Shown here: positions 48,389-57,555 of the stretch, one piece after another
Numbering within the stretch: position 1 is the first letter of the stretch
Layout of the letters: every line of letters starts with the position of its first letter
From: Candidatus Multivorans sp.
GTDB lineage: Bacteria > Acidobacteriota > Thermoanaerobaculia > Multivoradales > Multivoraceae
Assembly: GCA_965247095.1 (NCBI GenBank)
Contig: OZ251997.1
Location: 3,648,001 to 3,712,000, forward strand
Reading direction: 5' to 3'
Length of the DNA: 64,000 nt
Program-made: the position numbers and the translations under genes
The notes under the pieces: generated by a model
The model's database searches: none
What the model was told of the DNA's origin: nothing
The model's input: the letters and a program-made list of their open reading frames with translations, nothing else

Positions 48389-49701
48389 GTGAGTCCCTGG
48401 CGGACCCCTATCCGGTTCGGCGCGCCGACCGTGTGGGGGGAGTCGTCGAGCCTCCGGGTTCGAAGAGCATTTCGCATCGGGCACTGAACCTGGCGTTGAT
48501 CGGGCAGCGGCCCGCGACGATCGAGAACCTGCTCGAAGCCGAGGACATCGCCGCCTTCTCGGGCGCCCTCGAGCGCATGGGCTGGCGGCTCAGGCGCGTC
48601 TCGGGCACCGAAGTGCGGGTGGAACCGCCGCCAGGCGGCCCACCCGATTCGCCAGTGCGGCTGGACTGCAAGAGAGCGGGTACGCTGCTGCGGTTCCTCG
48701 TCGCGAGCTGCGCGGTGACGCCGGGCGAGTGGATTCTCGACGGGTCGCCGCGGCTGCGTGAACGACCGGTCGGACCGCTGCTCGCCGCTCTTCGCCAACT
48801 CGGCGCGAGCATCGACGAACTCGGCCGGCCCGGCTGCGCGCCGATCAGGATCCATGGCGGCACTCTGGCCGGCGGGCGGGTCGAGATCGATGCTGGGGAG
48901 TCGAGTCAGTACGTGTCCGCGCTGCTCATGGCGGGACTGCGGGCGGAGAGGCCAATCCAACTTCTGGCGCCGTTTCTCGTCTCTAGTCCATATGTGGACA
49001 CAACTCTTCAAGTCATGGCTGATTTCGGTTCTTTCGTAGGGTCCGGCGGCGCCGGCGGGGCGTGCGAATTCCGGATTGAACCTCACCGGCCGGAGGCGTC
49101 GGGCGGCCGCTACCGCGTCGCCGGCGACGACTCCGCGGCTGCCTACCCCGCGGCAGCGGCGGCGCTGTGCGGCGGCCGGGTGCGGCTGCGTGGTCTGGCG
49201 CCGACATCGACCCAGGGCGACCGCGCGTTCCTGGGGCTCCTCGAGCAGATGGGAGCGGTGGTGCGGGTGGCGCGAGGGGAGGTCGAGATCGAGGGCAACG
49301 GCGTCCTGACCGCACTCGACTGCGACCTCTCCGAGATGCCCGACCAGGTACCCACGCTTGCCGCGGTGGCCGCCTTTGCCGACGGCGTGACAGCCATTCG
49401 CAATGTGGCCCACCTGCGGATCAAGGAGAGCGACCGCCTGGCGGCGATCGGAACCGAGTTGCGGCGGGCGGGCGGCTCGGTCGAGGAGCTGCCGGACGGT
49501 CTGCGCATCGAGGGGAATCCCGGTCTGACCGCGGCGCCGGGTTCGCCGCGCGTCTCGATCGATACCTATGACGACCACCGCATCGCGATGAGCATGGCGC
49601 TGGTGGGTCTTCGGCGGGGAGGGCTGTCGATTCGCCGCCCGGCGGTGGTTGCCAAGTCCTACCCCGGCTTCTGGGGCGACCTTGAGGGGATTGCACGATG
49701 A
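48376..49701 (+). CDS. aroA: EPSP synthase
   Basis: PGSKSISHR, RERP, SSQYVSALL, KESDRL, DDHRIAMS, KSYPGF; start GTG 48376 or TTG 48385. Confidence 0.95.
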   Translation: MAGLSESLADPYPVRRADRVGGVVEPPGSKSISHRALNLALIGQRPATIENLLEAEDIAAFSGALERMGWRLRRVSGTEVRVEPPPGGPPDSPVRLDCKRAGTLLRFLVASCAVTPGEWILDGSPRLRERPVGPLLAALRQLGASIDELGRPGCAPIRIHGGTLAGGRVEIDAGESSQYVSALLMAGLRAERPIQLLAPFLVSSPYVDTTLQVMADFGSFVGSGGAGGACEFRIEPHRPEASGGRYRVAGDDSAAAYPAAAAALCGGRVRLRGLAPTSTQGDRAFLGLLEQMGAVVRVARGEVEIEGNGVLTALDCDLSEMPDQVPTLAAVAAFADGVTAIRNVAHLRIKESDRLAAIGTELRRAGGSVEELPDGLRIEGNPGLTAAPGSPRVSIDTYDDHRIAMSMALVGLRRGGLSIRRPAVVAKSYPGFWGDLEGIAR

Positions 49702-52700
49702 CTACGGTGCTGCGTATCCGTCACCAGGCGCTGGAGGCCGTTCCCGAAGATGCCGGTGCCGCGGGTCTTCCCGAGAGCAGCCTGAACGATCGGCAACGGG
49801 CCGGTGTGCTGCTTCAGGGCGCCGCGTTGCTGGCCCATCTGCGAACCGCCGGCTGGCGGTTGCAGTCGTGGACAGGACTTGTCGTCGATTCGCTGGGCGT
49901 GCTCCGGATCGAGCCGGGCATGGTGACGGTGGGGCGAGACGGACGGTCCCCCCAAGCCGTATTGAGACGGTTTGCCTCGTTGTTGTTCGGGGGTGAGGAG
50001 ATGGTCGGCCGGAGCGCCGTACGGGCGGCGCTTCGCCCTGTGGTCGCGAGTTGGAGCGACCTCCTTCTGCCCTTCCCGGCGGACCGACTGATCGCGGACA
50101 TTCTGGATCACGCCCCCTTTTTGTGGGGAGGCGAGTACCGGGCCGCGAGGGTGTCTCTGTTTGCCGTGCACGAACGCGAAGAAGGCGAAGAGGTGGTGGT
50201 CGTTGGTCATTCCCGGTGGCGGCGCTCGCTGCTGCGGGCCGCCGGCACCGATCCGGAGCGCCTCTCGACCACGACGGAGCGCATCTCGACCATTCTCGGC
50301 AGCGACGAGGCTCTGGAGCACTGGCTTGGCGACAACGCTTCGGGTGGGCCGATCGACTGGATTGCCCGGGGAGATTGGCGACGTGCGGTGGACGAGTCCC
50401 TGCGAGAGCCGCCCACCGATCCGGGGGAGCGGAGCGCGGTGGCGCGGGCACTCCTCGCCAGTGGCCGGTTCGAGGCCGCCCTGGCGCTGATCGCGCCTTC
50501 CCGCCGAACCGAAGACATCCTGATCCGGCTCGAGGGTCTGGTGAGGATGGGCCGGATGGCGGCTGCGCGCCGCACTCTCACCGTGCTCGAGAAGCGCCGT
50601 CTCGGCGGTGCGGCGAAGCTCGCAGCGTGCGAGGAAGCGATCAGGATCCATGGGGCTGCGGGCCACTCGGCGAGGCTCAGAACCTGGGCGGAGCGGGCCC
50701 TCGAGGCCGCGGTCGGTCCGCTTGCCGGTCGGGGGCGTGCTCTCGCCTTCCTGGCGATGCGCGAGGTCGGCGCGACCGGCGAAACGGCTTCTCCGCTCGA
50801 CCCGGAGAAAGAACCCGAAGACTGGATGTCGTGCCTGGCCCGAGCCCGTCTCGCGGTGGACCGCGGCCTCTTCACAGAGGCCGATCAGGCCTTGGCGATG
50901 GCGCTGAGGCAGTTCCGGAGACACCTGCCGATCTACGACCGCGCCAGCCTCTGGAACGAGTTGGCGACGCTTCGACTCTCAGTGGACGACTGCACTGGCG
51001 CCGAGCGGGCGGCACGCGTCTCCGTCCGGCTCTTCCGGTGTTGCGATGGACCCGCTGGAAGGACTGGGGCGCATGGCAATCTCGCGGGGGCTCGGATTCG
51101 TACCGGCCGCCTGACCGGCATCCGCAAGACGATCGACAACCTGCGCTGCGAGAGCCTGATGGCCGGGAGCGTCGCCGGGATCGTGGAAGCGCGGCAACTC
51201 GAAGCGCGTCTGGACCTGGCGCAGGGTCGTTGGAGCTCGGCCCTGGAATCCTGCAGGTCAGCCCTGGACGAGTTGCGGAAACGGCAGTTGGGAGGGGGCC
51301 GGCTGCGGGCCCTTCGCCTGCTGGCGGCCCGCGCCCTGGTTCACCTCGGTCGCCGCGAGGAGGCGAGAGAGGAGCTCTTGGCAGTGCTCCCGCTGACGGC
51401 CGCAGACCGCCTGGGCGGCGCACGGGCTGGAAGCGACGTTCTGCCCGCTGTCTTTCTTCTTGCCGGGCTTGGGGAGGAGGCGCGCGTCGTTGGGGCGGGC
51501 GCCGCCTGTGCCGGGCTGTGGGAGGCGGTCAGCGAGAACCGGGCCCCGAGCAGCGCGGATTGGCGGCGGCTCGAAGAGCAGGGGGCCTACCGCTCGGCAC
51601 TGACGATCCACGATCTGGTCTGTCTTGGGGTCGAGGAAGTGCCGTCCAGGTTGCTCGAATCGGCAGTGGGAACCCTGTCCGAAGTAGGCGCCGAGGCGCT
51701 CGCGCAGCGCGTGGACGCCGCCCGGCTGGGCCCTTGGAGAGCTCTTCGCGCCTTCCTGGACGGGGAAGAGTTCGACTCGGTCACGTTTCATTCGTTGCTG
51801 TCGTCCGCCGGTCATCCCGAGGCACGCATCATGGTCCACGAGTCTCTCGACGTGGGAGGGCAGGACGAACCCAAGGAAGTCCTGTTGGAGGGACCCGGCG
51901 GCTCTGAGCAGTTCTCGGTCCGCGTGCCCGCTGGCAGCCTGGTACTCAGTGCGGACCGTATCGAGGAGCCGGCAAGGGCCCTGTTGACCGTGATCGCGGG
52001 TCGAGCGTCTGCGGCATTCGGTCGTCGCCGCTACGATCTGGAGTTGGCCGAGGCGAGAAAGTCGACCTTGGCCGGCATGGTGGGTCGGAGCAAGGCGCTG
52101 GTGGCGGCCCAGAAGCGCGTCGAGAAACTGGCATCGCACGATCTGCCGGTGTTGATTCTGGGTGAGTCGGGTACGGGCAAGGAACTGCTGGCGCGGCAGC
52201 TTCACGATTCGAGCGCACGCGCGTCGGGGCCCTGGCTGGCGGTGAACTGCGCTGCTCTTCCTGAGGGGCTCCTCGTGTCCGATCTGTTCGGTCATAGTCA
52301 AGGTTCGTTCACCGGCGCCGACCGCGACCGGATAGGCCTGTTCGAGAGCGGTGATGGCGGTACGGTCTTTCTCGATGAGATTGCGGAACTGCCGTTGGTG
52401 GCCCAGGGAATGCTCCTGCGCATCCTGCAGGAAGGCGAGATGCGCCGGGTCGGTGAGAGCCGTTCGCGTCATCTGGACTTTCGTCTCGTTTCGGCAACCC
52501 ATCGCGATCTTTCGGCCATGGTCGAGGCCGGCCGGTTTAGAGAGGATCTCTATTACCGGCTTCGGGTGGCGAATGTCGAAGCGCCGGCACTCCGGGATCG
52601 CGATGACGACGTGATGTTGCTGGCGCACCACTTTCTCGGAATGTTCTCGGGTGACCGGGAAAGTCTGCGATTCAGCGGGCACGCCCGCAGAAGGATTCTG

Positions 52701-52994
52701 GAGTATCCGTGGCCCGGGAATATCAGAGAGCTTAGGAACGTGATCGAGAGCGCGGCGGCGCTCACGGAAAGCCCGGAGATTACGGTTGAGATGCTGGGAC
52801 TTCCGAATGAGCCGCGTCGTCCATCCCAGGCGGGGGTGGCCAGCTATCACCGGAAGCTCGAACAGTACCGGCGCGGTTTGATCCGCAAGGCGCTTGCGGA
52901 GGCCGGTGGGAATCAGGCGCGTGCAGCGCGCGCTCTCGGTCTGAGTCGACAGGCATTGTCCTACCTGGTGAGAAAACTGAACTACGCTCCCTGA
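49698..52994 (+). CDS. Large sigma54-dependent enhancer-binding protein (TPR-like N-terminal region, AAA+, Fis HTH)
   Basis: GESGTGKEL, VNCAAL, GSFTGA, FLDEI, FREDLYYRL, WPGNIREL, GNQARAARALG; ~780-aa helical N-terminus; ATGA overlap with aroA. Confidence 0.9.
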   Translation: MTTVLRIRHQALEAVPEDAGAAGLPESSLNDRQRAGVLLQGAALLAHLRTAGWRLQSWTGLVVDSLGVLRIEPGMVTVGRDGRSPQAVLRRFASLLFGGEEMVGRSAVRAALRPVVASWSDLLLPFPADRLIADILDHAPFLWGGEYRAARVSLFAVHEREEGEEVVVVGHSRWRRSLLRAAGTDPERLSTTTERISTILGSDEALEHWLGDNASGGPIDWIARGDWRRAVDESLREPPTDPGERSAVARALLASGRFEAALALIAPSRRTEDILIRLEGLVRMGRMAAARRTLTVLEKRRLGGAAKLAACEEAIRIHGAAGHSARLRTWAERALEAAVGPLAGRGRALAFLAMREVGATGETASPLDPEKEPEDWMSCLARARLAVDRGLFTEADQALAMALRQFRRHLPIYDRASLWNELATLRLSVDDCTGAERAARVSVRLFRCCDGPAGRTGAHGNLAGARIRTGRLTGIRKTIDNLRCESLMAGSVAGIVEARQLEARLDLAQGRWSSALESCRSALDELRKRQLGGGRLRALRLLAARALVHLGRREEAREELLAVLPLTAADRLGGARAGSDVLPAVFLLAGLGEEARVVGAGAACAGLWEAVSENRAPSSADWRRLEEQGAYRSALTIHDLVCLGVEEVPSRLLESAVGTLSEVGAEALAQRVDAARLGPWRALRAFLDGEEFDSVTFHSLLSSAGHPEARIMVHESLDVGGQDEPKEVLLEGPGGSEQFSVRVPAGSLVLSADRIEEPARALLTVIAGRASAAFGRRRYDLELAEARKSTLAGMVGRSKALVAAQKRVEKLASHDLPVLILGESGTGKELLARQLHDSSARASGPWLAVNCAALPEGLLVSDLFGHSQGSFTGADRDRIGLFESGDGGTVFLDEIAELPLVAQGMLLRILQEGEMRRVGESRSRHLDFRLVSATHRDLSAMVEAGRFREDLYYRLRVANVEAPALRDRDDDVMLLAHHFLGMFSGDRESLRFSGHARRRILEYPWPGNIRELRNVIESAAALTESPEITVEMLGLPNEPRRPSQAGVASYHRKLEQYRRGLIRKALAEAGGNQARAARALGLSRQALSYLVRKLNYAP

Positions 52995-53086
52995 TCTGAC
53001 CCTGTTTGCCTAGCTCGGTTCCCACGCCGATGCCTCTGCCTGCTCCCTTGGCGAGCTAGTCCGGACAGGGAATTGTGTATGCGACT

Positions 53087-53115
53087 CTGGGCCTTGCCGT
53101 GCTTTCTGCTATGGT
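53087..53115 (+). promoter_or_regulatory. Candidate promoter(s) of the triple-HTH gene
   Basis: Extended -10 TGcTATGGT at 53107-53115; also a weaker sigma54-like TGG-N10-GC (CTGGGCCTTGCCGTGCT, 53087-53103). Confidence 0.45.
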
Positions 53116-53191
53116 CCCGACAGAGTTCTCCCGCCGTTCCCATAGAGGGGATAGGGGACACCGAACAAGGCTAACGAAGGGGAGTACCGCG

Positions 53192-54127
53192 GTGAGTGCA
53201 GCTGCTGCTGGAAGAAAGAACCTGTTGACATTGGGTGAGATCGCTCGCCGCACGAGAATCTCGATGGCCACGGCGCAGCGCTACAAGAAGCTGTACCCGG
53301 ATCGCATCCCGTCGGAGGGGGAGGGACGCAAGCAGCGGTACCCGGCCGTCGCCGTCAAGGTCTTCAACGCGTTGAAGAAGGAACGGGTCTCAAAGCGCCG
53401 GGGCGGCGGTCGCAAGCGGAGTCCCAAGAAGCCGGCGAAGGCTGCTGCTACCGGCGCGGCGCTTCTGACTCTTTCGAGTATCGGCGAGCAGACGGGCATC
53501 TCCTATCCGACCTTGCAGCGTTACGTAAAGCTGTTCGGCGATCGGATTCCACATGAGGGCGCCGGTCGCAAGCGTCGCTACCATCCGGACTCGGTCGCCG
53601 TCTTCCGGCAGCTTCGCGCGGAGAGCAAGCCGGGGCGGAAACCCAAGGCAGAGGCCGCCGCCAAGGCGGCCAAGGCCCCGGCAAGAAAGAAGCGGAAGGC
53701 GCGCGCCAAGGCCGCTCCTCGGAGTGCTCCTGGTCCGAAGCTGCTGACGTTGACCGCGATCGGCCAGCAGACGGGGATCTCCAGCCCGACCCTGCAGCGC
53801 TATGTGAAGTTGCACGGTGACCGGATTCCACACGAGGGCCAAGGCCGGAAGCGGCGGTACCACCCGGAAGCGGTGGCGGTCTTCCGTGAGATCCGGTCCA
53901 AGAGCAAACGGGGCCGGAAACCGAAGGCCAAGGTCGAGGTTGCTGCGCCCCAGAAGGCCGCTGTTCCGGCAAGGAAGCGGAAGGTGCGGGCCGCCAAGGT
54001 TCGACGGAAGGCCGCTCCCGTCGCGGCTCAGGGTGGCGTTGAGGCTCGTTTGGCTGCGCTTGAGGCCCAGGTGAGTCAGGTGCTGAAGAAGCTGGAGCAA
54101 CCGATCACGATCACGCTCAAGCGTTAA
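53192..54127 (+). CDS. Basic DNA-binding protein: three tandem MerR/Xis-like HTH domains, K/A-rich linkers, C-terminal coiled coil
   Basis: Repeat LLTLxxIxxxTxISxxTxQRYxKLxxDRIPxEGxGRKxRY at 53222, 53462 and 53741; GTG start after AAGGGGAG. Confidence 0.85.
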   Translation: MSAAAAGRKNLLTLGEIARRTRISMATAQRYKKLYPDRIPSEGEGRKQRYPAVAVKVFNALKKERVSKRRGGGRKRSPKKPAKAAATGAALLTLSSIGEQTGISYPTLQRYVKLFGDRIPHEGAGRKRRYHPDSVAVFRQLRAESKPGRKPKAEAAAKAAKAPARKKRKARAKAAPRSAPGPKLLTLTAIGQQTGISSPTLQRYVKLHGDRIPHEGQGRKRRYHPEAVAVFREIRSKSKRGRKPKAKVEVAAPQKAAVPARKRKVRAAKVRRKAAPVAAQGGVEARLAALEAQVSQVLKKLEQPITITLKR

Positions 54128-54193
54128 GCCATGAAGCGCCCGCACCGGGCTCAAGTGGCGCCATGTGATCTCTAGTCGGCGCCCGTGCCGACC

Positions 54194-55183
54194 TCAGGCC
54201 AGATGATCCCAGCCCTCCGCGGATAGGGGTTCGAGGATTCCGTCGCTTCGCAACAGGCTCATGCCTGGTTGGCTGGTGACGCGGCCGATTCGTCGGCATC
54301 CGGGATGGTTGAAGTGCGCCTTGGGTGGCAGCGTGAACAGGAGTACGTAGTCCTCGCCGCCGCCCAGGATCAGGTGGAGTGGATCGAGACCCAGGTAGCC
54401 GGCCAGACGGCGGGCGTCCGGGCGGAGGGCGATCGCCTCCTCGTGGAGTACGCAGCCGGCGCCGCTGGCGCGGCAGAGGCGCCCGGCGTCGACCGCCAGA
54501 CCGTCTGAGATGTCGATAGCCGCTCCCGGTGGGCGTCGCTTCCCGAGGATCAGTCCGAGTTCGAGCTGCGGTCGAGGTTCGAGGTGCCGGCGCACGACCC
54601 GGCTCGCGGCGCGTGCCAGGTCAGGTGGCAGTTCGTCGGGCAGCCTCGGTTTGCGCCCGACGATCCGGGCGCCCGACCGGACCAGATCAAGTCCCAGCGC
54701 GGACTCGCCGACCGCACCGCCGAGCCAGAGGTCGTCGCCCTGACGGGCGGCGCTGCGAGCCAGCGGAATGCTGCCTGCCGGTACTTCCCCGATCACGGTC
54801 AGGCCGGCGTCGAGGTGGCCTGGCGTCGAACAGCGGGCGGTATCGCCGCCGATCAGCTCGATTCCGTAGCGCCGGCTGCGATGAACCAGAGCGGCCAGGA
54901 AGCGTCGCGCGGTCTTCTCGTCGTCGACGCCGAGTGCCAAGAGGGCCCAGCGCGGTTCGGCGCCCGTGGCGGCGAGGTCGGAGAGGCTGACCGCAAGCAG
55001 CCGCCGCGCGGCGGCCGCCGGATCGAGATCGATTGGAATGTGGACGTTCGCACGCTGGGTATCGACGCTGAATGCGAGCTGCCGGCCGCCGAACTCGAGC
55101 AGGGCCGCGTCGTCGCCGATCCGATCTCCCGAGCCCGCGAGGTTCGCGAGCCAGGCGGTCAGCCGGTCTTCGCCGCCGGCCAT
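54194..55183 (-). CDS. thiL: Thiamine-monophosphate kinase
   Basis: IGDDAA, SLSDLAATGAEP, IGGDT, IDISDGL, GGEDYVLLFT, GWDH. Confidence 0.93.
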   Translation of the reverse strand: MAGGEDRLTAWLANLAGSGDRIGDDAALLEFGGRQLAFSVDTQRANVHIPIDLDPAAAARRLLAVSLSDLAATGAEPRWALLALGVDDEKTARRFLAALVHRSRRYGIELIGGDTARCSTPGHLDAGLTVIGEVPAGSIPLARSAARQGDDLWLGGAVGESALGLDLVRSGARIVGRKPRLPDELPPDLARAASRVVRRHLEPRPQLELGLILGKRRPPGAAIDISDGLAVDAGRLCRASGAGCVLHEEAIALRPDARRLAGYLGLDPLHLILGGGEDYVLLFTLPPKAHFNHPGCRRIGRVTSQPGMSLLRSDGILEPLSAEGWDHLA

Positions 55184-57555
55184 GACTGCGAACGCTCCGA
55201 GTCGAGCAGCGCGGCCTCGAGAACCTGATCGAAGTGGTCGACGAAGACCAGTTCGAGGCCGCGGGTCACCGCCGCCGGGATCTCCGATAAGTCTCGCCGG
55301 TTCCTTTCGGGCAGGATCACCTTGCCAATCCCCGCTCCGCGCGCGGCCAGCAGCTTCTCCTTCAGTCCGCCAACCGGAAGGACCTCGCCTCTCAGCGTGA
55401 TCTCACCCGTCATCGCGATCGTGTGGTCGATGGGTCGGCCGCTCTGGACGGAGACGATTGCGGCGGCAATCGTGATACCCGCCGATGGACCGTCCTTCGG
55501 AACCGATCCCGCGGGGACGTGAATGTGCAGATCGTGGCGACGCAAGAAATCGGGACCCGAGCCGGTTGGACCCTCGGGACTCGCGACCCGGGCGCAGCTC
55601 AGTGCGGCTTGCGCCGACTCCCTCATCACTTCGCCCAGTTGACCGGTGAGGACCAGCTTGCCCTTGCCCCGGGAGGCCGCTACTTCGATCAGCAGGAGAT
55701 CGCCCCCGGCCGCGGTCCAGGCGAGCCCGGTCGCGACACCGATCCGGTCGCGGTCGAGCAGTTCCTCGCTGAAGTGCCGCGGCTGACCCAGCAGACCCGT
55801 CAACCGGGCCGGGATTACCCGCAACTTGCGGTCGTCTCCGCGCGCAACGCGTACAGCGGCCTTGCGGCACAGGGTTGCGAGCTCCCGCTCGAGATTGCGC
55901 ACGCCCGCTTCCTTCGTGTACCCGCGGATCAGACTGCGCAATGCGGCGGAGCTGATTTTGAGAACTCCTTCCGGCAGACCATTCTCCTCGGTCGCTTTCG
56001 GAATCAGGTGGCGGCGTGCGATCAGGACCTTTTCGTCCTCCGTGTACCCGGAGAGACGAAGCACTTCGAGTCGATCGAGGAACGCCGGCTGAATGGGTTC
56101 GAGCAGGTTCCCGGTGGCGATGAAGAGCACTCGCGACAGGTCGTACTCGACACCCAGATAGTGGTCCCTGAACGTGGAGTTCTGTTCCGGATCGAGCACT
56201 TCGAGCAAGGCTGCCGCGGGGTCGCCGCGGTAGTCGGCGCCAAGCTTGTCGATCTCATCCAGCATGAAGACCGGGTTGCTGGTTCCGGCCTGGTTCAGTC
56301 CCTGAATGATGCGCCCCGGCAGAGAACCGACGTAGGTCCGCCGGTGGCCCCGGATCTCTCCCTCGTCGCGGACGCCGCCCAGGGAGATGCGCACGAACTT
56401 GCGGTCTATCGCGCGCGCGATGGAACGACCGAGCGATGTCTTTCCGACGCCTGGAGGGCCGACCAGGCAGAGGATCGGCCCCTTGGCGTCAGGTTTGAGG
56501 CGCCTCACGGCCAGGTACTCGAGTATCCGCTCCTTGATCCGGTCGAGATTGTAGTGGTCCTCGTCGAGCACGGCGCGGGCGCGGTCGAGGTCGATCCGGT
56601 CCTCGCTCACGGTCGACCACGGCAGTCCGGTCAACCAGTCCAGATGGCCCCGGATGGTCGCGTTCTCGGCGCTGTCGGGAGAACTCCGCTCCAGCCTTCG
56701 GACCTGGCGCTCGACCTCGGTGGCCGCCTCCTCGGTCAAACCGCGCTCCTCGACGGCGCGAAGGTAGCGGTCGATGTCACCGTGAAGGTCGTCGCCCTCT
56801 CCGAGTTCGTCCAGGATGGCTCGCAGTTGCTGGCGCAGGAAGTATTCGCGCTGGCTCCGGTCCATCTCGCTCTTGGCCTGCGCCGAGATGCGCTGCTGCA
56901 TACTGAGCAGTTCGATCTCGCGCGTCAACAGGTCCCCGACCCGTCGCAGGCGCTGGACGGGTTGGATCGTCGCCAGCACGGTCTGGGCCTCCTCCGGCTT
57001 GAGGCCCAAGTTGCTCGCGGCGAGATCGGCCAGCCGACCGGGGTGATCCAGATTGGCCGCGATCACCATGACCTCGGAAGAGACGTCCTTACCCAGGTTG
57101 ACCGCGGTCTCCAGACCCTCCTTGACGCTGCGGACCAGAGCTTCCGCCTCGAGCTGGTTCCGATCTTCCGGGTCTTCGTCTACTTCGACCACACGGGCGC
57201 GAAGAAAGGGCTCGGTCTGGCTCAGGTGCCGCAGCCGCGCCCGCGCCAGTCCCTGAATCAGGATCCGGACCCGACCGTCCGGCAACTTCAGCATGCGCAT
57301 GATCAACGCGGCGGTTCCGATCTCGTGGAGATCGTCCTGTCCGGGCTCTTCGATCGAACTGTCGCGTTGGGGCGCCAGCAGGATGATGCGGTCGTTGCTC
57401 AGCGCGTCCTCGACCGCGAGCATGCTGGCGTCGCGGCTGATCGAAAGCGGCAGGATGATGTAGGGGAAGATGACCGAGTCCTTGAGCGGCAGGACCGGCA
57501 ACACGTCGGGCAGCGAAATGACGTCCGACTGCTCGCTATTCAGGGTCTCCGCCAT
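55159..57555 (-). CDS. lon: ATP-dependent Lon protease
   Basis: N-domain LPVLPL, GPPGVGKTS, GHRRTYVG, DEIDK, PKDGPSAG, GGLKEK. Confidence 0.97.
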   Translation of the reverse strand: MAETLNSEQSDVISLPDVLPVLPLKDSVIFPYIILPLSISRDASMLAVEDALSNDRIILLAPQRDSSIEEPGQDDLHEIGTAALIMRMLKLPDGRVRILIQGLARARLRHLSQTEPFLRARVVEVDEDPEDRNQLEAEALVRSVKEGLETAVNLGKDVSSEVMVIAANLDHPGRLADLAASNLGLKPEEAQTVLATIQPVQRLRRVGDLLTREIELLSMQQRISAQAKSEMDRSQREYFLRQQLRAILDELGEGDDLHGDIDRYLRAVEERGLTEEAATEVERQVRRLERSSPDSAENATIRGHLDWLTGLPWSTVSEDRIDLDRARAVLDEDHYNLDRIKERILEYLAVRRLKPDAKGPILCLVGPPGVGKTSLGRSIARAIDRKFVRISLGGVRDEGEIRGHRRTYVGSLPGRIIQGLNQAGTSNPVFMLDEIDKLGADYRGDPAAALLEVLDPEQNSTFRDHYLGVEYDLSRVLFIATGNLLEPIQPAFLDRLEVLRLSGYTEDEKVLIARRHLIPKATEENGLPEGVLKISSAALRSLIRGYTKEAGVRNLERELATLCRKAAVRVARGDDRKLRVIPARLTGLLGQPRHFSEELLDRDRIGVATGLAWTAAGGDLLLIEVAASRGKGKLVLTGQLGEVMRESAQAALSCARVASPEGPTGSGPDFLRRHDLHIHVPAGSVPKDGPSAGITIAAAIVSVQSGRPIDHTIAMTGEITLRGEVLPVGGLKEKLLAARGAGIGKVILPERNRRDLSEIPAAVTRGLELVFVDHFDQVLEAALLDSERSQSWPAAKTG

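Follow-up and report, generated by a model that had tools for sequence, protein, structure and literature searches.

Effector-less proteins with a MerR-like winged helix-turn-helix (wHTH) domain, such as BldC, RacA and Xis, act by multimerising along DNA. We describe here a gene from Candidatus Multivorans sp. whose product carries three domains of this type on a single chain. The gene lies in a 64,000-nucleotide stretch of the genome (contig OZ251997.1, positions 3,648,001 to 3,712,000 of the forward strand), which is called the window below, and encodes a strongly basic protein of 311 residues in which the three wHTH repeats are separated by disordered linkers with AT-hook-like motifs and followed by a C-terminal amphipathic helix. 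We propose, with a probability of roughly one half, that this is a multivalent DNA-architectural protein; within one order of the Thermoanaerobaculia it may be a nucleoid-associated protein, or a global regulator, peculiar to that lineage. Its DNA binding, binding mode, oligomerisation, abundance and genome-wide role are what we infer on the grounds given below.

RacA of Bacillus subtilis coats and compacts DNA (PMC4914108). It shares with the window protein a MerR-type wHTH, a disordered linker, a C-terminal coiled coil and the absence of an effector domain. The likeness is one of layout only: RacA possesses one wHTH instead of three, is devoid of basic GRKPK or AT-hook linkers, and its DivIVA-binding coiled coil is a long one. 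Sequence kinship is negligible: the NCBIfam models NF009647 and NF009648 yield 22.6 and 17.5 bits where 165 and 170 would be required, and the Protein Data Bank (PDB) profile match has an E-value of 0.64. BldC from Streptomyces, likewise an effector-less MerR-like wHTH protein, distorts DNA and assembles head-to-tail multimers on direct repeats (PMC5859096). It is a single domain of 68 residues and monomeric off DNA, whereas here three wHTH domains are covalently joined by basic linkers of 24–44 residues and a C-terminal helix is added. Excisionases of the lambda Xis and RdfS type belong to the same wHTH class (HTH_17) and oligomerise along DNA (PMC11963761); unlike the present gene, which occupies a conserved chromosomal context, they are single-domain proteins encoded on mobile elements beside integrases. 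Classical MerR regulators differ in two further respects, as the window protein has neither a long dimerisation helix directly after the DNA-binding domain nor an effector-binding domain.

The linkers resemble the disordered basic DNA-binding segments of Myxococcus CarD, HMGA and histone H1 tails, and two-repeat relatives of the window protein carry the RGRP core. For CarD, it has been described that H1-like K/A/P-rich tails can replace HMGA-type AT-hooks, the two being functionally interchangeable (PMC8156234). This interchange is paralleled by the change from RGRP to K/A/P-rich GRKPK within the present family. CarD is unlike the window protein in that its structured part binds RNA polymerase and is not a wHTH, and in that GRKP, not RGRP, is found here. 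The resemblance to chlamydial Hc2, which is also K/A/P-rich, is compositional only; further bacterial histone-like tails rich in K and A are those of AlgP and HupB. In H-NS and Lsr2 the Q/R-G-R motif lies in a folded loop, and its ‘RGR’ variant is the one used in low-AT genomes (PMC4466236). The third hook of the window protein contains an RGR (KRGRKPK; the second has PGR), and the genome, with a G+C content of 67.7%, was found to contain no H-NS or Lsr2 homologue. The folds are unrelated, the domain order is reversed, and the RGR of the window protein is situated within a disordered linker and not in a structured loop.

Three winged helix-turn-helix modules on a basic chain

The protein has a pI of 11.71 and a net charge of +61, with 80 lysines and arginines (K+R) facing 19 aspartates and glutamates (D+E). 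Its length, its basic character and the repeats beginning at positions 53222, 53462 and 53741 of the window, as given in a preliminary description of the locus, proved exact; in the protein these starts correspond to residues 11, 91 and 184 (Table 1). The gene is present once, on the chromosome, in the 4.62-Mb one-contig genome. The reading frame is backed by 987 homologues with E ≤ 0.001 among 8,000 scored candidates, and the N-terminus MSAAAAGRK is conserved in an alignment of 38 sequences, to which all statements on protein conservation below refer. The start region GTGAGTGCA is conserved across the alignment of upstream regions and fits a GTG start. Because of these homologues, the conserved N-terminus and start region and the Shine-Dalgarno sequence, the frame and GTG start of the 311-residue protein are taken to be real.

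Many orthologue entries in the databases are 279–289 residues long (92% coverage; P0003, P0005–P0009 and others), apparently begun at the internal Met25 (window position 53264 as opposed to 53192). A start at this methionine would truncate helix 1 of the first HTH. Since the GTG start and the MSAAAAGRK N-terminus are conserved, the short entries suggest start-codon miscalls.

The second and third repeats are 79% identical and the first and second 49%, over 63 residues without gaps; the best identity among 10,000 shuffles of the first repeat was 21%. In Pfam, MerR_1 (PF13411) matched with 43.7 bits against a cut-off of 21.6 and HTH_17 (PF12728) with 43.6 bits against 27, in two to three stretches; every repeat exceeds the cut-offs of both models. 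NCBIfam models for RacA, CarH, Xis and HspR matched only far below their thresholds. The Pfam and NCBIfam scan of the whole protein revealed no effector-binding domain, as had been stated before; the additional matches were overlapping models of the HTH class and sub-threshold chance matches. The recognition helices are almost invariant throughout the family (ISYPTLQRYVKL, ISGPTLQRYLKL), and conservation extends to the HTH and to the wing motif G-x-G-R-K-x-R-Y. Searching the PDB by sequence gave no matches with the whole protein; a profile of the repeats gave only marginal ones (best E 0.39), RacA being the sole marginal match covering the full domain.

An AlphaFold2 (AF2) model was built with the 38-sequence alignment. 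Each repeat is predicted as a pair of helices followed by a short beta-hairpin wing and a third, longer helix, with a predicted local distance difference test (pLDDT) score of about 85–94. The predicted template-modelling score (pTM) is 0.27 and the model shows no fixed packing of the domains against one another, but an arrangement like beads on a string. Because of this arrangement the whole model gave no Foldseek match at E ≤ 0.001. Local, single-domain matches were obtained with RacA (5i44; TMt 0.71, root-mean-square deviation (rmsd) 2.0 Å), Pukovnik Xis (TMt 0.66) and BldC (6amk_B; TMt 0.64, 29% identity over 51 columns), and also with CarH and GlnR. Alignment with VIA-align against 998 chains returned 101 with Z ≥ 5, headed by CbpM (3ucs; Z 8.0), RacA–DNA (5i44; Z 7.5) and NmlR–DNA (5d90; Z 7.4), followed by CvkR and TnrA. 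Chain 5i44_K of RacA superimposes on the first repeat with an rmsd of 2.2 Å over 59 aligned residues (Z 7.5; model residues 10–70). DNA-binding domains of the MerR class dominate the best 50 of the 101 rows, with Z of 6–8 and 55–63 residues aligned at an rmsd of about 2–3 Å. A VIA Z below 8 might alone mean merely a common arrangement of elements; taken together with the Pfam scores, the assignment of the modelled repeats to the MerR-type wHTH is firm, and the MerR/Xis-like fold that the preliminary description had read from the sequence is thus confirmed with RacA, BldC, Xis and classical MerR proteins among the matches.

The top row of the VIA alignment also bears on a different kind of target. 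CbpM is listed there in complex with the J-domain of CbpA, and an Hsp70–Hsp40–DafA complex is found further down (Z 5.7), so that the MerR-fold modules might bind protein as CbpM and DafA do. Alternatively, the basic chain might bind RNA or ribosomes; very basic disordered proteins often bind RNA. Against such a target, the other rows are mostly DNA-bound MerR domains, the wing motif and the HTH are conserved, and the AT-hooks of the relatives point to DNA. We hold a target other than DNA to be very improbable.

The basic linkers noted in the preliminary description were recovered as segments that are highly charged (K+R 40 against D+E 2 for all three together) and also disordered, pLDDT falling below 50 at residues 74–88, 152–180 and 246–279. 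The motifs it quoted, namely KPGRKPK, KRGRKPK, GGGRKRSPKK (residues 71–80, following the first repeat), the K/A/P-rich linkers and the terminal VEARLAALEAQVSQVLKKLEQ, are all present in the translation. The hooks are at least 90% conserved while the other parts of the linkers are variable. The view of these motifs as AT-hook-like gains support from the canonical RGRP core that relatives carry after their first repeat; in the window protein itself the hooks are of the GRKP type. AT-hooks have been called rare in bacteria (PMC8156234). The Pfam model AT_hook gave no match, even for relatives with a plain RGRP; this short model was probably filtered out and the result is uninformative. No match to the Pfam linker-histone or HC2 models was found in the 311-residue protein (P0001), and in one relative (P0130) the linker matched HC2 with 26.3 bits, below the cut-off of 40.

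A disordered linker of 44 residues parts the third repeat from the sole long helix of the AF2 model, which spans residues 284–302. Residues V283, L287, L290, V294, V297 and L301 follow a 3-4-3-4 spacing corresponding to a and d positions, and all six, like P304 and the tail, are invariant or at least 90% conserved. A conserved heptad helix thus ends the protein, in keeping with the short C-terminal coiled coil proposed earlier, of which it is the helix that is now established by conservation and prediction. In the three-repeat orthologues P0068, P0072, P0081 and P0082 (337–392 residues), long acidic or repeated ‘VEARLAE...’-type inserts separate the C-terminal helix from the last hook. Such inserts would extend the putative coiled coil or supply an acidic spacer as in CarD.

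With wHTH domains, disordered linkers and a putative terminal coiled coil, the protein is laid out like RacA (PMC4914108), which invites the view that it is an adaptor for chromosome anchoring or segregation, its wHTH domains gripping DNA and its coiled coil binding a polar or membrane-associated partner and not itself. RacA is among the best structural matches and the only, though marginal, full-domain match to a PDB sequence (E 0.64), and weak matches to the NCBIfam RacA models are seen (8.6e-05). The scores of these models lie far beneath their cut-offs, however (22.6 bits against 165 for the better one), the C-terminal helix has only about three heptads, no segregation genes are located nearby and a partner is not known. 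We regard such an adaptor as quite improbable.

As an architectural protein, in contrast to an adaptor, the product would work as follows. The linkers open with a GRKPK or RGRKPK hook right after helix 3 of the second and third repeats. Together with the K/A/P-rich linkers, these hooks would add non-specific contacts to phosphates and to the minor groove in the manner of HMGA and histone H1. The C-terminal heptad helix would join two or more chains, and a single particle, then containing at least six HTH modules, could coat, bend or bridge DNA.

Table 1. Features of the gene, its product and the surrounding region (window coordinates; linker and hook numbers follow the preceding repeat).
Feature	Residues	Window position	Strand	Basis or remark
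Sigma-54-dependent activator, 1098 aa (TPR region, AAA+ domain, Fis-type HTH)		49698..52994	+	Pfam; ends 197 nt upstream of the HTH gene
Extended -10-like element TGCTATGGT		53107..53115	+	Within conserved block CTTCTGCTATnGTC (53103-53116)
Predicted small stem-loop TTCCC...GGGGA, then second AGGGGA		53129..53158	+	ViennaRNA
Shine-Dalgarno sequence GGGAG		53180..53184	+	7 nt 5' of GTG; GGAG-type block conserved among relatives
Coding sequence of the triple-HTH protein	1-311	53192..54127	+	311 codons, GTG start, TAA stop, no internal stops
Repeat 1, MerR-type wHTH	11-66	53222..53389	+	AF2 (pLDDT ~85-94); VIA match to RacA 5i44_K
Linker 1, basic, disordered, degenerate hook RRGGGRKRSPKK	67-90	53390..53461	+	K+R 9, D+E 0 in 24 aa; residues 74-88 with pLDDT < 50
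Repeat 2, MerR-type wHTH	91-145	53462..53626	+	Pfam, repeat alignment, AF2
Hook 2, KPGRKPK	146-152	53627..53647	+	P147, G148, R149, K150, P151, K152 invariant or at least 90% conserved
Remainder of linker 2, K/A/P-rich, disordered	153-183	53648..53740	+	AF2 and charge count
Repeat 3, MerR-type wHTH	184-238	53741..53905	+	Best Pfam stretch 186-241; most VIA rows span 181-243
Hook 3, KRGRKPK, with RGR core	239-245	53906..53926	+	R240, G241, R242, K243, P244, K245 at least 90% conserved
Remainder of linker 3, basic, disordered	246-282	53927..54037	+	Residues 246-279 with pLDDT < 50
C-terminal amphipathic helix (283-302, ~three heptads) and conserved tail QPITITLKR		54038..54124	+	AF2 and conservation
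thiL-like gene (AIRS domain in orthologues)		54194..55183	-	Convergent downstream neighbour
lon		55159..57555	-	Next beyond thiL

Repeat number and distribution of the family

A profile of the three repeats, run against 1.84 billion representative proteins, returned 601 proteins at E ≤ 0.001, of which 204 also passed E ≤ 1e-10; each had one to five matched stretches. Repeat number, which the preliminary description had proposed to map together with the neighbourhood, was counted by hmmsearch among 265 proteins, a sample biased toward close relatives. One repeat was found in 63 proteins, two in 117, three in 80, four in three and five in a single protein. A range of one to five is what would be expected of a binder that works by valency.

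The two-repeat relatives are about 220 residues long and end in the same C-terminal helix and tail as the window protein. Many of them carry the canonical AT-hook core KRRGRPRK after the first repeat. By counts with our own regular expressions, RGRP or GRP follows the first repeat in 61 of 105 two-repeat proteins and a GRKP-like hook the second repeat in 78. In three-repeat proteins a GRKP-like hook follows the second repeat in 41 of 46 and the third in 45, and none follows the first in 44. In one relative (P0141) several hooks, RGRP or GRP, share a single linker.

The origin of the third module was approached with a tree of 95 repeat segments (65 columns), made by a quick method and with many forks unresolved. 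In this tree the second and third repeats of the three-repeat proteins nest within the clade of repeat-2 type (support 86). The first repeat forms a clade of its own (support 97), which stands beside the first repeats of the two-repeat proteins in a relation that is left unresolved. Because both later repeats fall within the repeat-2-type clade, we trace the third module to repeat 2, which was duplicated along with its GRKPK hook. In the window gene the second and third repeats agree at 74% of their DNA positions, with 92% identity at second codon positions and 52% at third; with third positions so far diverged, the duplication is judged to be old.

A search of 401 Acidobacteriota genomes (E ≤ 1e-8) showed where the family occurs. 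All eight other genomes of the window's genus matched, with three repeats each (four matched stretches in one of them). Elsewhere in its order, five of eight genomes from other families matched, four of them through two-repeat proteins and the fifth through a fragment. A distant family had a match with a single repeat in nine of 15 genomes, and another family in its one genome; none of the remaining listed genomes of the class matched. Records that carry a name are metagenome-assembled genomes of Candidatus Multivorans, Multivoraceae, Thermoanaerobaculia and ‘Holophagales’. ESM Atlas clusters are labelled ‘hypothetical protein’, with Acidobacteriota as the commonest phylum, and a cluster look-up for ten diverse relatives yielded neither names nor taxa.

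The preliminary description had not recognised the architecture as a described family, and we likewise found no account of the triple wHTH, hook and helix combination in a literature search. The BldC paper treats only small, single-domain BldC-like proteins (PMC5859096). Names given to the homologues in their sources are limited to hypothetical protein, MerR, AlpA or excisionase. By its sequences this is an unnamed, lineage-restricted family, found so far mainly in Acidobacteriota, and its architecture is a new one assembled from known parts.

Several relatives depart from the common plan. P0231 combines one HTH and an RGRP hook with a TIR_2 domain (98.6 bits), and in P0155 two repeats are followed by an OpcA-like region; both may be fusions or read-throughs of gene calling. 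P0122 (853 residues, on a 12.2-Mb NCBI contig) is a large, otherwise unrelated protein whose C-terminus is made up of four near-identical, back-to-back repeats of this HTH type without basic linkers. In the distant acidobacterial family the single-repeat relatives are 345–474 residues long, some with a long acidic region ahead of the HTH. Two of its loci (L062:4477-9674 and L063:6733-11658) show a conserved gene row unlike that of the window, consisting of an 838-residue AAA_27/AAA_23 ATPase, a small open reading frame (ORF), the HTH protein and a sigma factor of the extracytoplasmic function (ECF) type.

Neighbourhood, promoter and RNA libraries

The gene is situated between a sigma-54-dependent activator and a convergent pair, thiL and lon (Table 1). 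In 36 of 40 related loci the activator orthologue ends 100–270 nt upstream on the same strand, and thiL and lon converge on the HTH gene in 37 of 40, two of the remaining three being cut by the contig end. The activator is also nearby, with one to three genes between, in three genomes from two other families of the order (L058–L060). Across the order this sigma-54 enhancer-binding protein has 1029–1164 residues, with a long N-terminal region and TPR. The thiL and lon ORFs share 25 nt on the minus strand (55159–55183), an overlap pointing either to translational coupling or to a thiL gene whose true start makes it shorter.

The association with the activator bears on the possibility that the protein is a sequence-specific regulator of the BldC type. 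Its three tethered wHTH domains would then read three direct-repeat half-sites at a few promoters, perhaps in partnership with the upstream sigma-54 activator, for instance as the DNA-bender on which activators of this kind frequently rely. The nearly invariant recognition helices are in line with this, and BldC itself shows how an effector-less MerR-like wHTH regulates via direct repeats (PMC5859096). One RNA-library contig (X17, 52473–54302) spans both genes, though this is no proof of a single transcript. On the other hand, the alignment of 18 upstream regions revealed no recognisable autoregulatory direct-repeat operator besides the -10 block; the HTH gene has a conserved promoter block of its own; synteny inside one order may be mere inheritance; and a site-specific factor would not usually be so extremely charged or possess such hooks and H1-like linkers. 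Such a regulator is the alternative we take most seriously, as a tentative and rather doubtful one.

The database names AlpA and excisionase, together with HTH_17, which is the model of the excisionase/AlpA family, and the structural similarity to Pukovnik Xis, could mean that the protein serves a mobile element as its excisionase or recombination directionality factor. The context effectively refutes this. The housekeeping neighbourhood of thiL and lon is conserved, none of the adjacent annotated genes (sigma-54 activator, thiL, lon and an nrdR-like gene) is an integrase, searches of 50,697 phage and 72,556 plasmid records found no match, and the excisionase model TIGR01764, with 17.3 bits, stays below its cut-off of 28.8. 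The gene is chromosomal and vertically inherited.

Among the 18 aligned upstream regions, CTTCTGCTATnGTC is the best-conserved non-coding block. The element TGCTATnnT has 37 copies in the genome, many of which resemble -10 elements as judged from their flanks, and the block, judged by eye, is taken as a putative extended -10 promoter belonging to the HTH gene. A strict scan for sigma-70 promoters with two hexamers gave none, because no -35 sequence matched. The predicted 5' untranslated region is about 70 nt long and contains AGGGGA three times (53146, 53153 and 53178), the last copy being the Shine-Dalgarno sequence. Folding of 17 upstream regions with ViennaRNA placed a comparable hairpin at the same relative position, with different stem letters, in most of them. 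With such a hairpin predicted in most relatives, translational control by pairing that competes with the Shine-Dalgarno sequence is conceivable. An Rfam search of 52900–54300 returned only a chance-level match (Xoo5, 20.1 bits against 50).

In four RNA libraries, which stem from two studies, assembled contigs span the gene entirely (X17; X18, 53089–54455; X20, 53167–54343) or for the most part (X19, 53070–53907). They are 94–98% alike to the window and therefore come from related strains. These contigs document presence in RNA libraries only, as carry-over of DNA is possible, and being assembled they cannot rank genes by depth; the runs had moreover been selected with a 4-kb stretch around the HTH gene. 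A greater summed word depth over 52942–54543, with thin or missing cover of the neighbours, was for the same reasons (assembled contigs, selected runs) not used as evidence. As the contig starts at 53070, 53089 and 53167 disagree, no transcription start is claimed.

A proposed architectural role and what it would mean

Several observations weigh against an architectural role or narrow it. The wHTH domains are predicted to form a tethered array and not the rigid, pre-assembled head-to-tail array put forward in the preliminary description, because the AF2 model is without fixed inter-domain geometry (pTM 0.27, linkers below pLDDT 50). The hooks of the window protein (KPGRKPK, KRGRKPK, GGGRKR) are of the GRKP type and lack the canonical RGRP core. 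Near-invariant recognition helices suit a defined target sequence as well as architecture, and the MerR fold is able to bind protein, as in the CbpM complex that heads the VIA rows. With 34 kDa, the protein exceeds the size of classical nucleoid proteins. The family is present in just 24 of the 401 Acidobacteriota genomes, and the genome keeps three genes of the HU/IHF family. Because of this restricted distribution and the retained HU/IHF genes, the protein is an accessory factor and not the basic chromatin protein. The codon adaptation index (CAI) of the gene, with 21 ribosomal and elongation-factor genes as reference, is 0.584, which corresponds to the 28th percentile of 3,117 crudely ORF-called genes; the HU/IHF genes are at the 77th, 48th and 33rd percentiles. 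As a proxy for abundance the CAI was dropped as uninformative, not as negative, ribosomal and genomic codon usage being nearly identical and the HU/IHF values scattered.

A more far-reaching view would see here a new class of chromatin protein, in which tandem MerR-type wHTH domains, HMGA/H1-like hooks and a coiled-coil oligomerisation helix are combined, and which would act as a bridging organiser or xenogeneic silencer in high-G+C Thermoanaerobaculia free of H-NS and Lsr2. In this case valency would be tuned through the number of repeats (one to five), and the replacement of RGRP by K/A/P-rich GRKPK would echo the HMGA/H1 equivalence of CarD within one family. We consider this view speculative and unlikely as it stands.

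To our knowledge, bacterial chromatin proteins are known from few phyla, and we know of none in Acidobacteriota of this class. The present family renders the wHTH multimer covalent, with a valency of one to five and with eukaryote-like hooks, and would constitute a natural experiment on how the balance of DNA compaction and specificity depends on valency and on disordered basic linkers. The protein is small enough for direct biochemistry despite its uncultured hosts. If it does bridge DNA or silence AT-rich sequences, it would represent a new architectural solution beside H-NS, Lsr2, MvaT and Rok.

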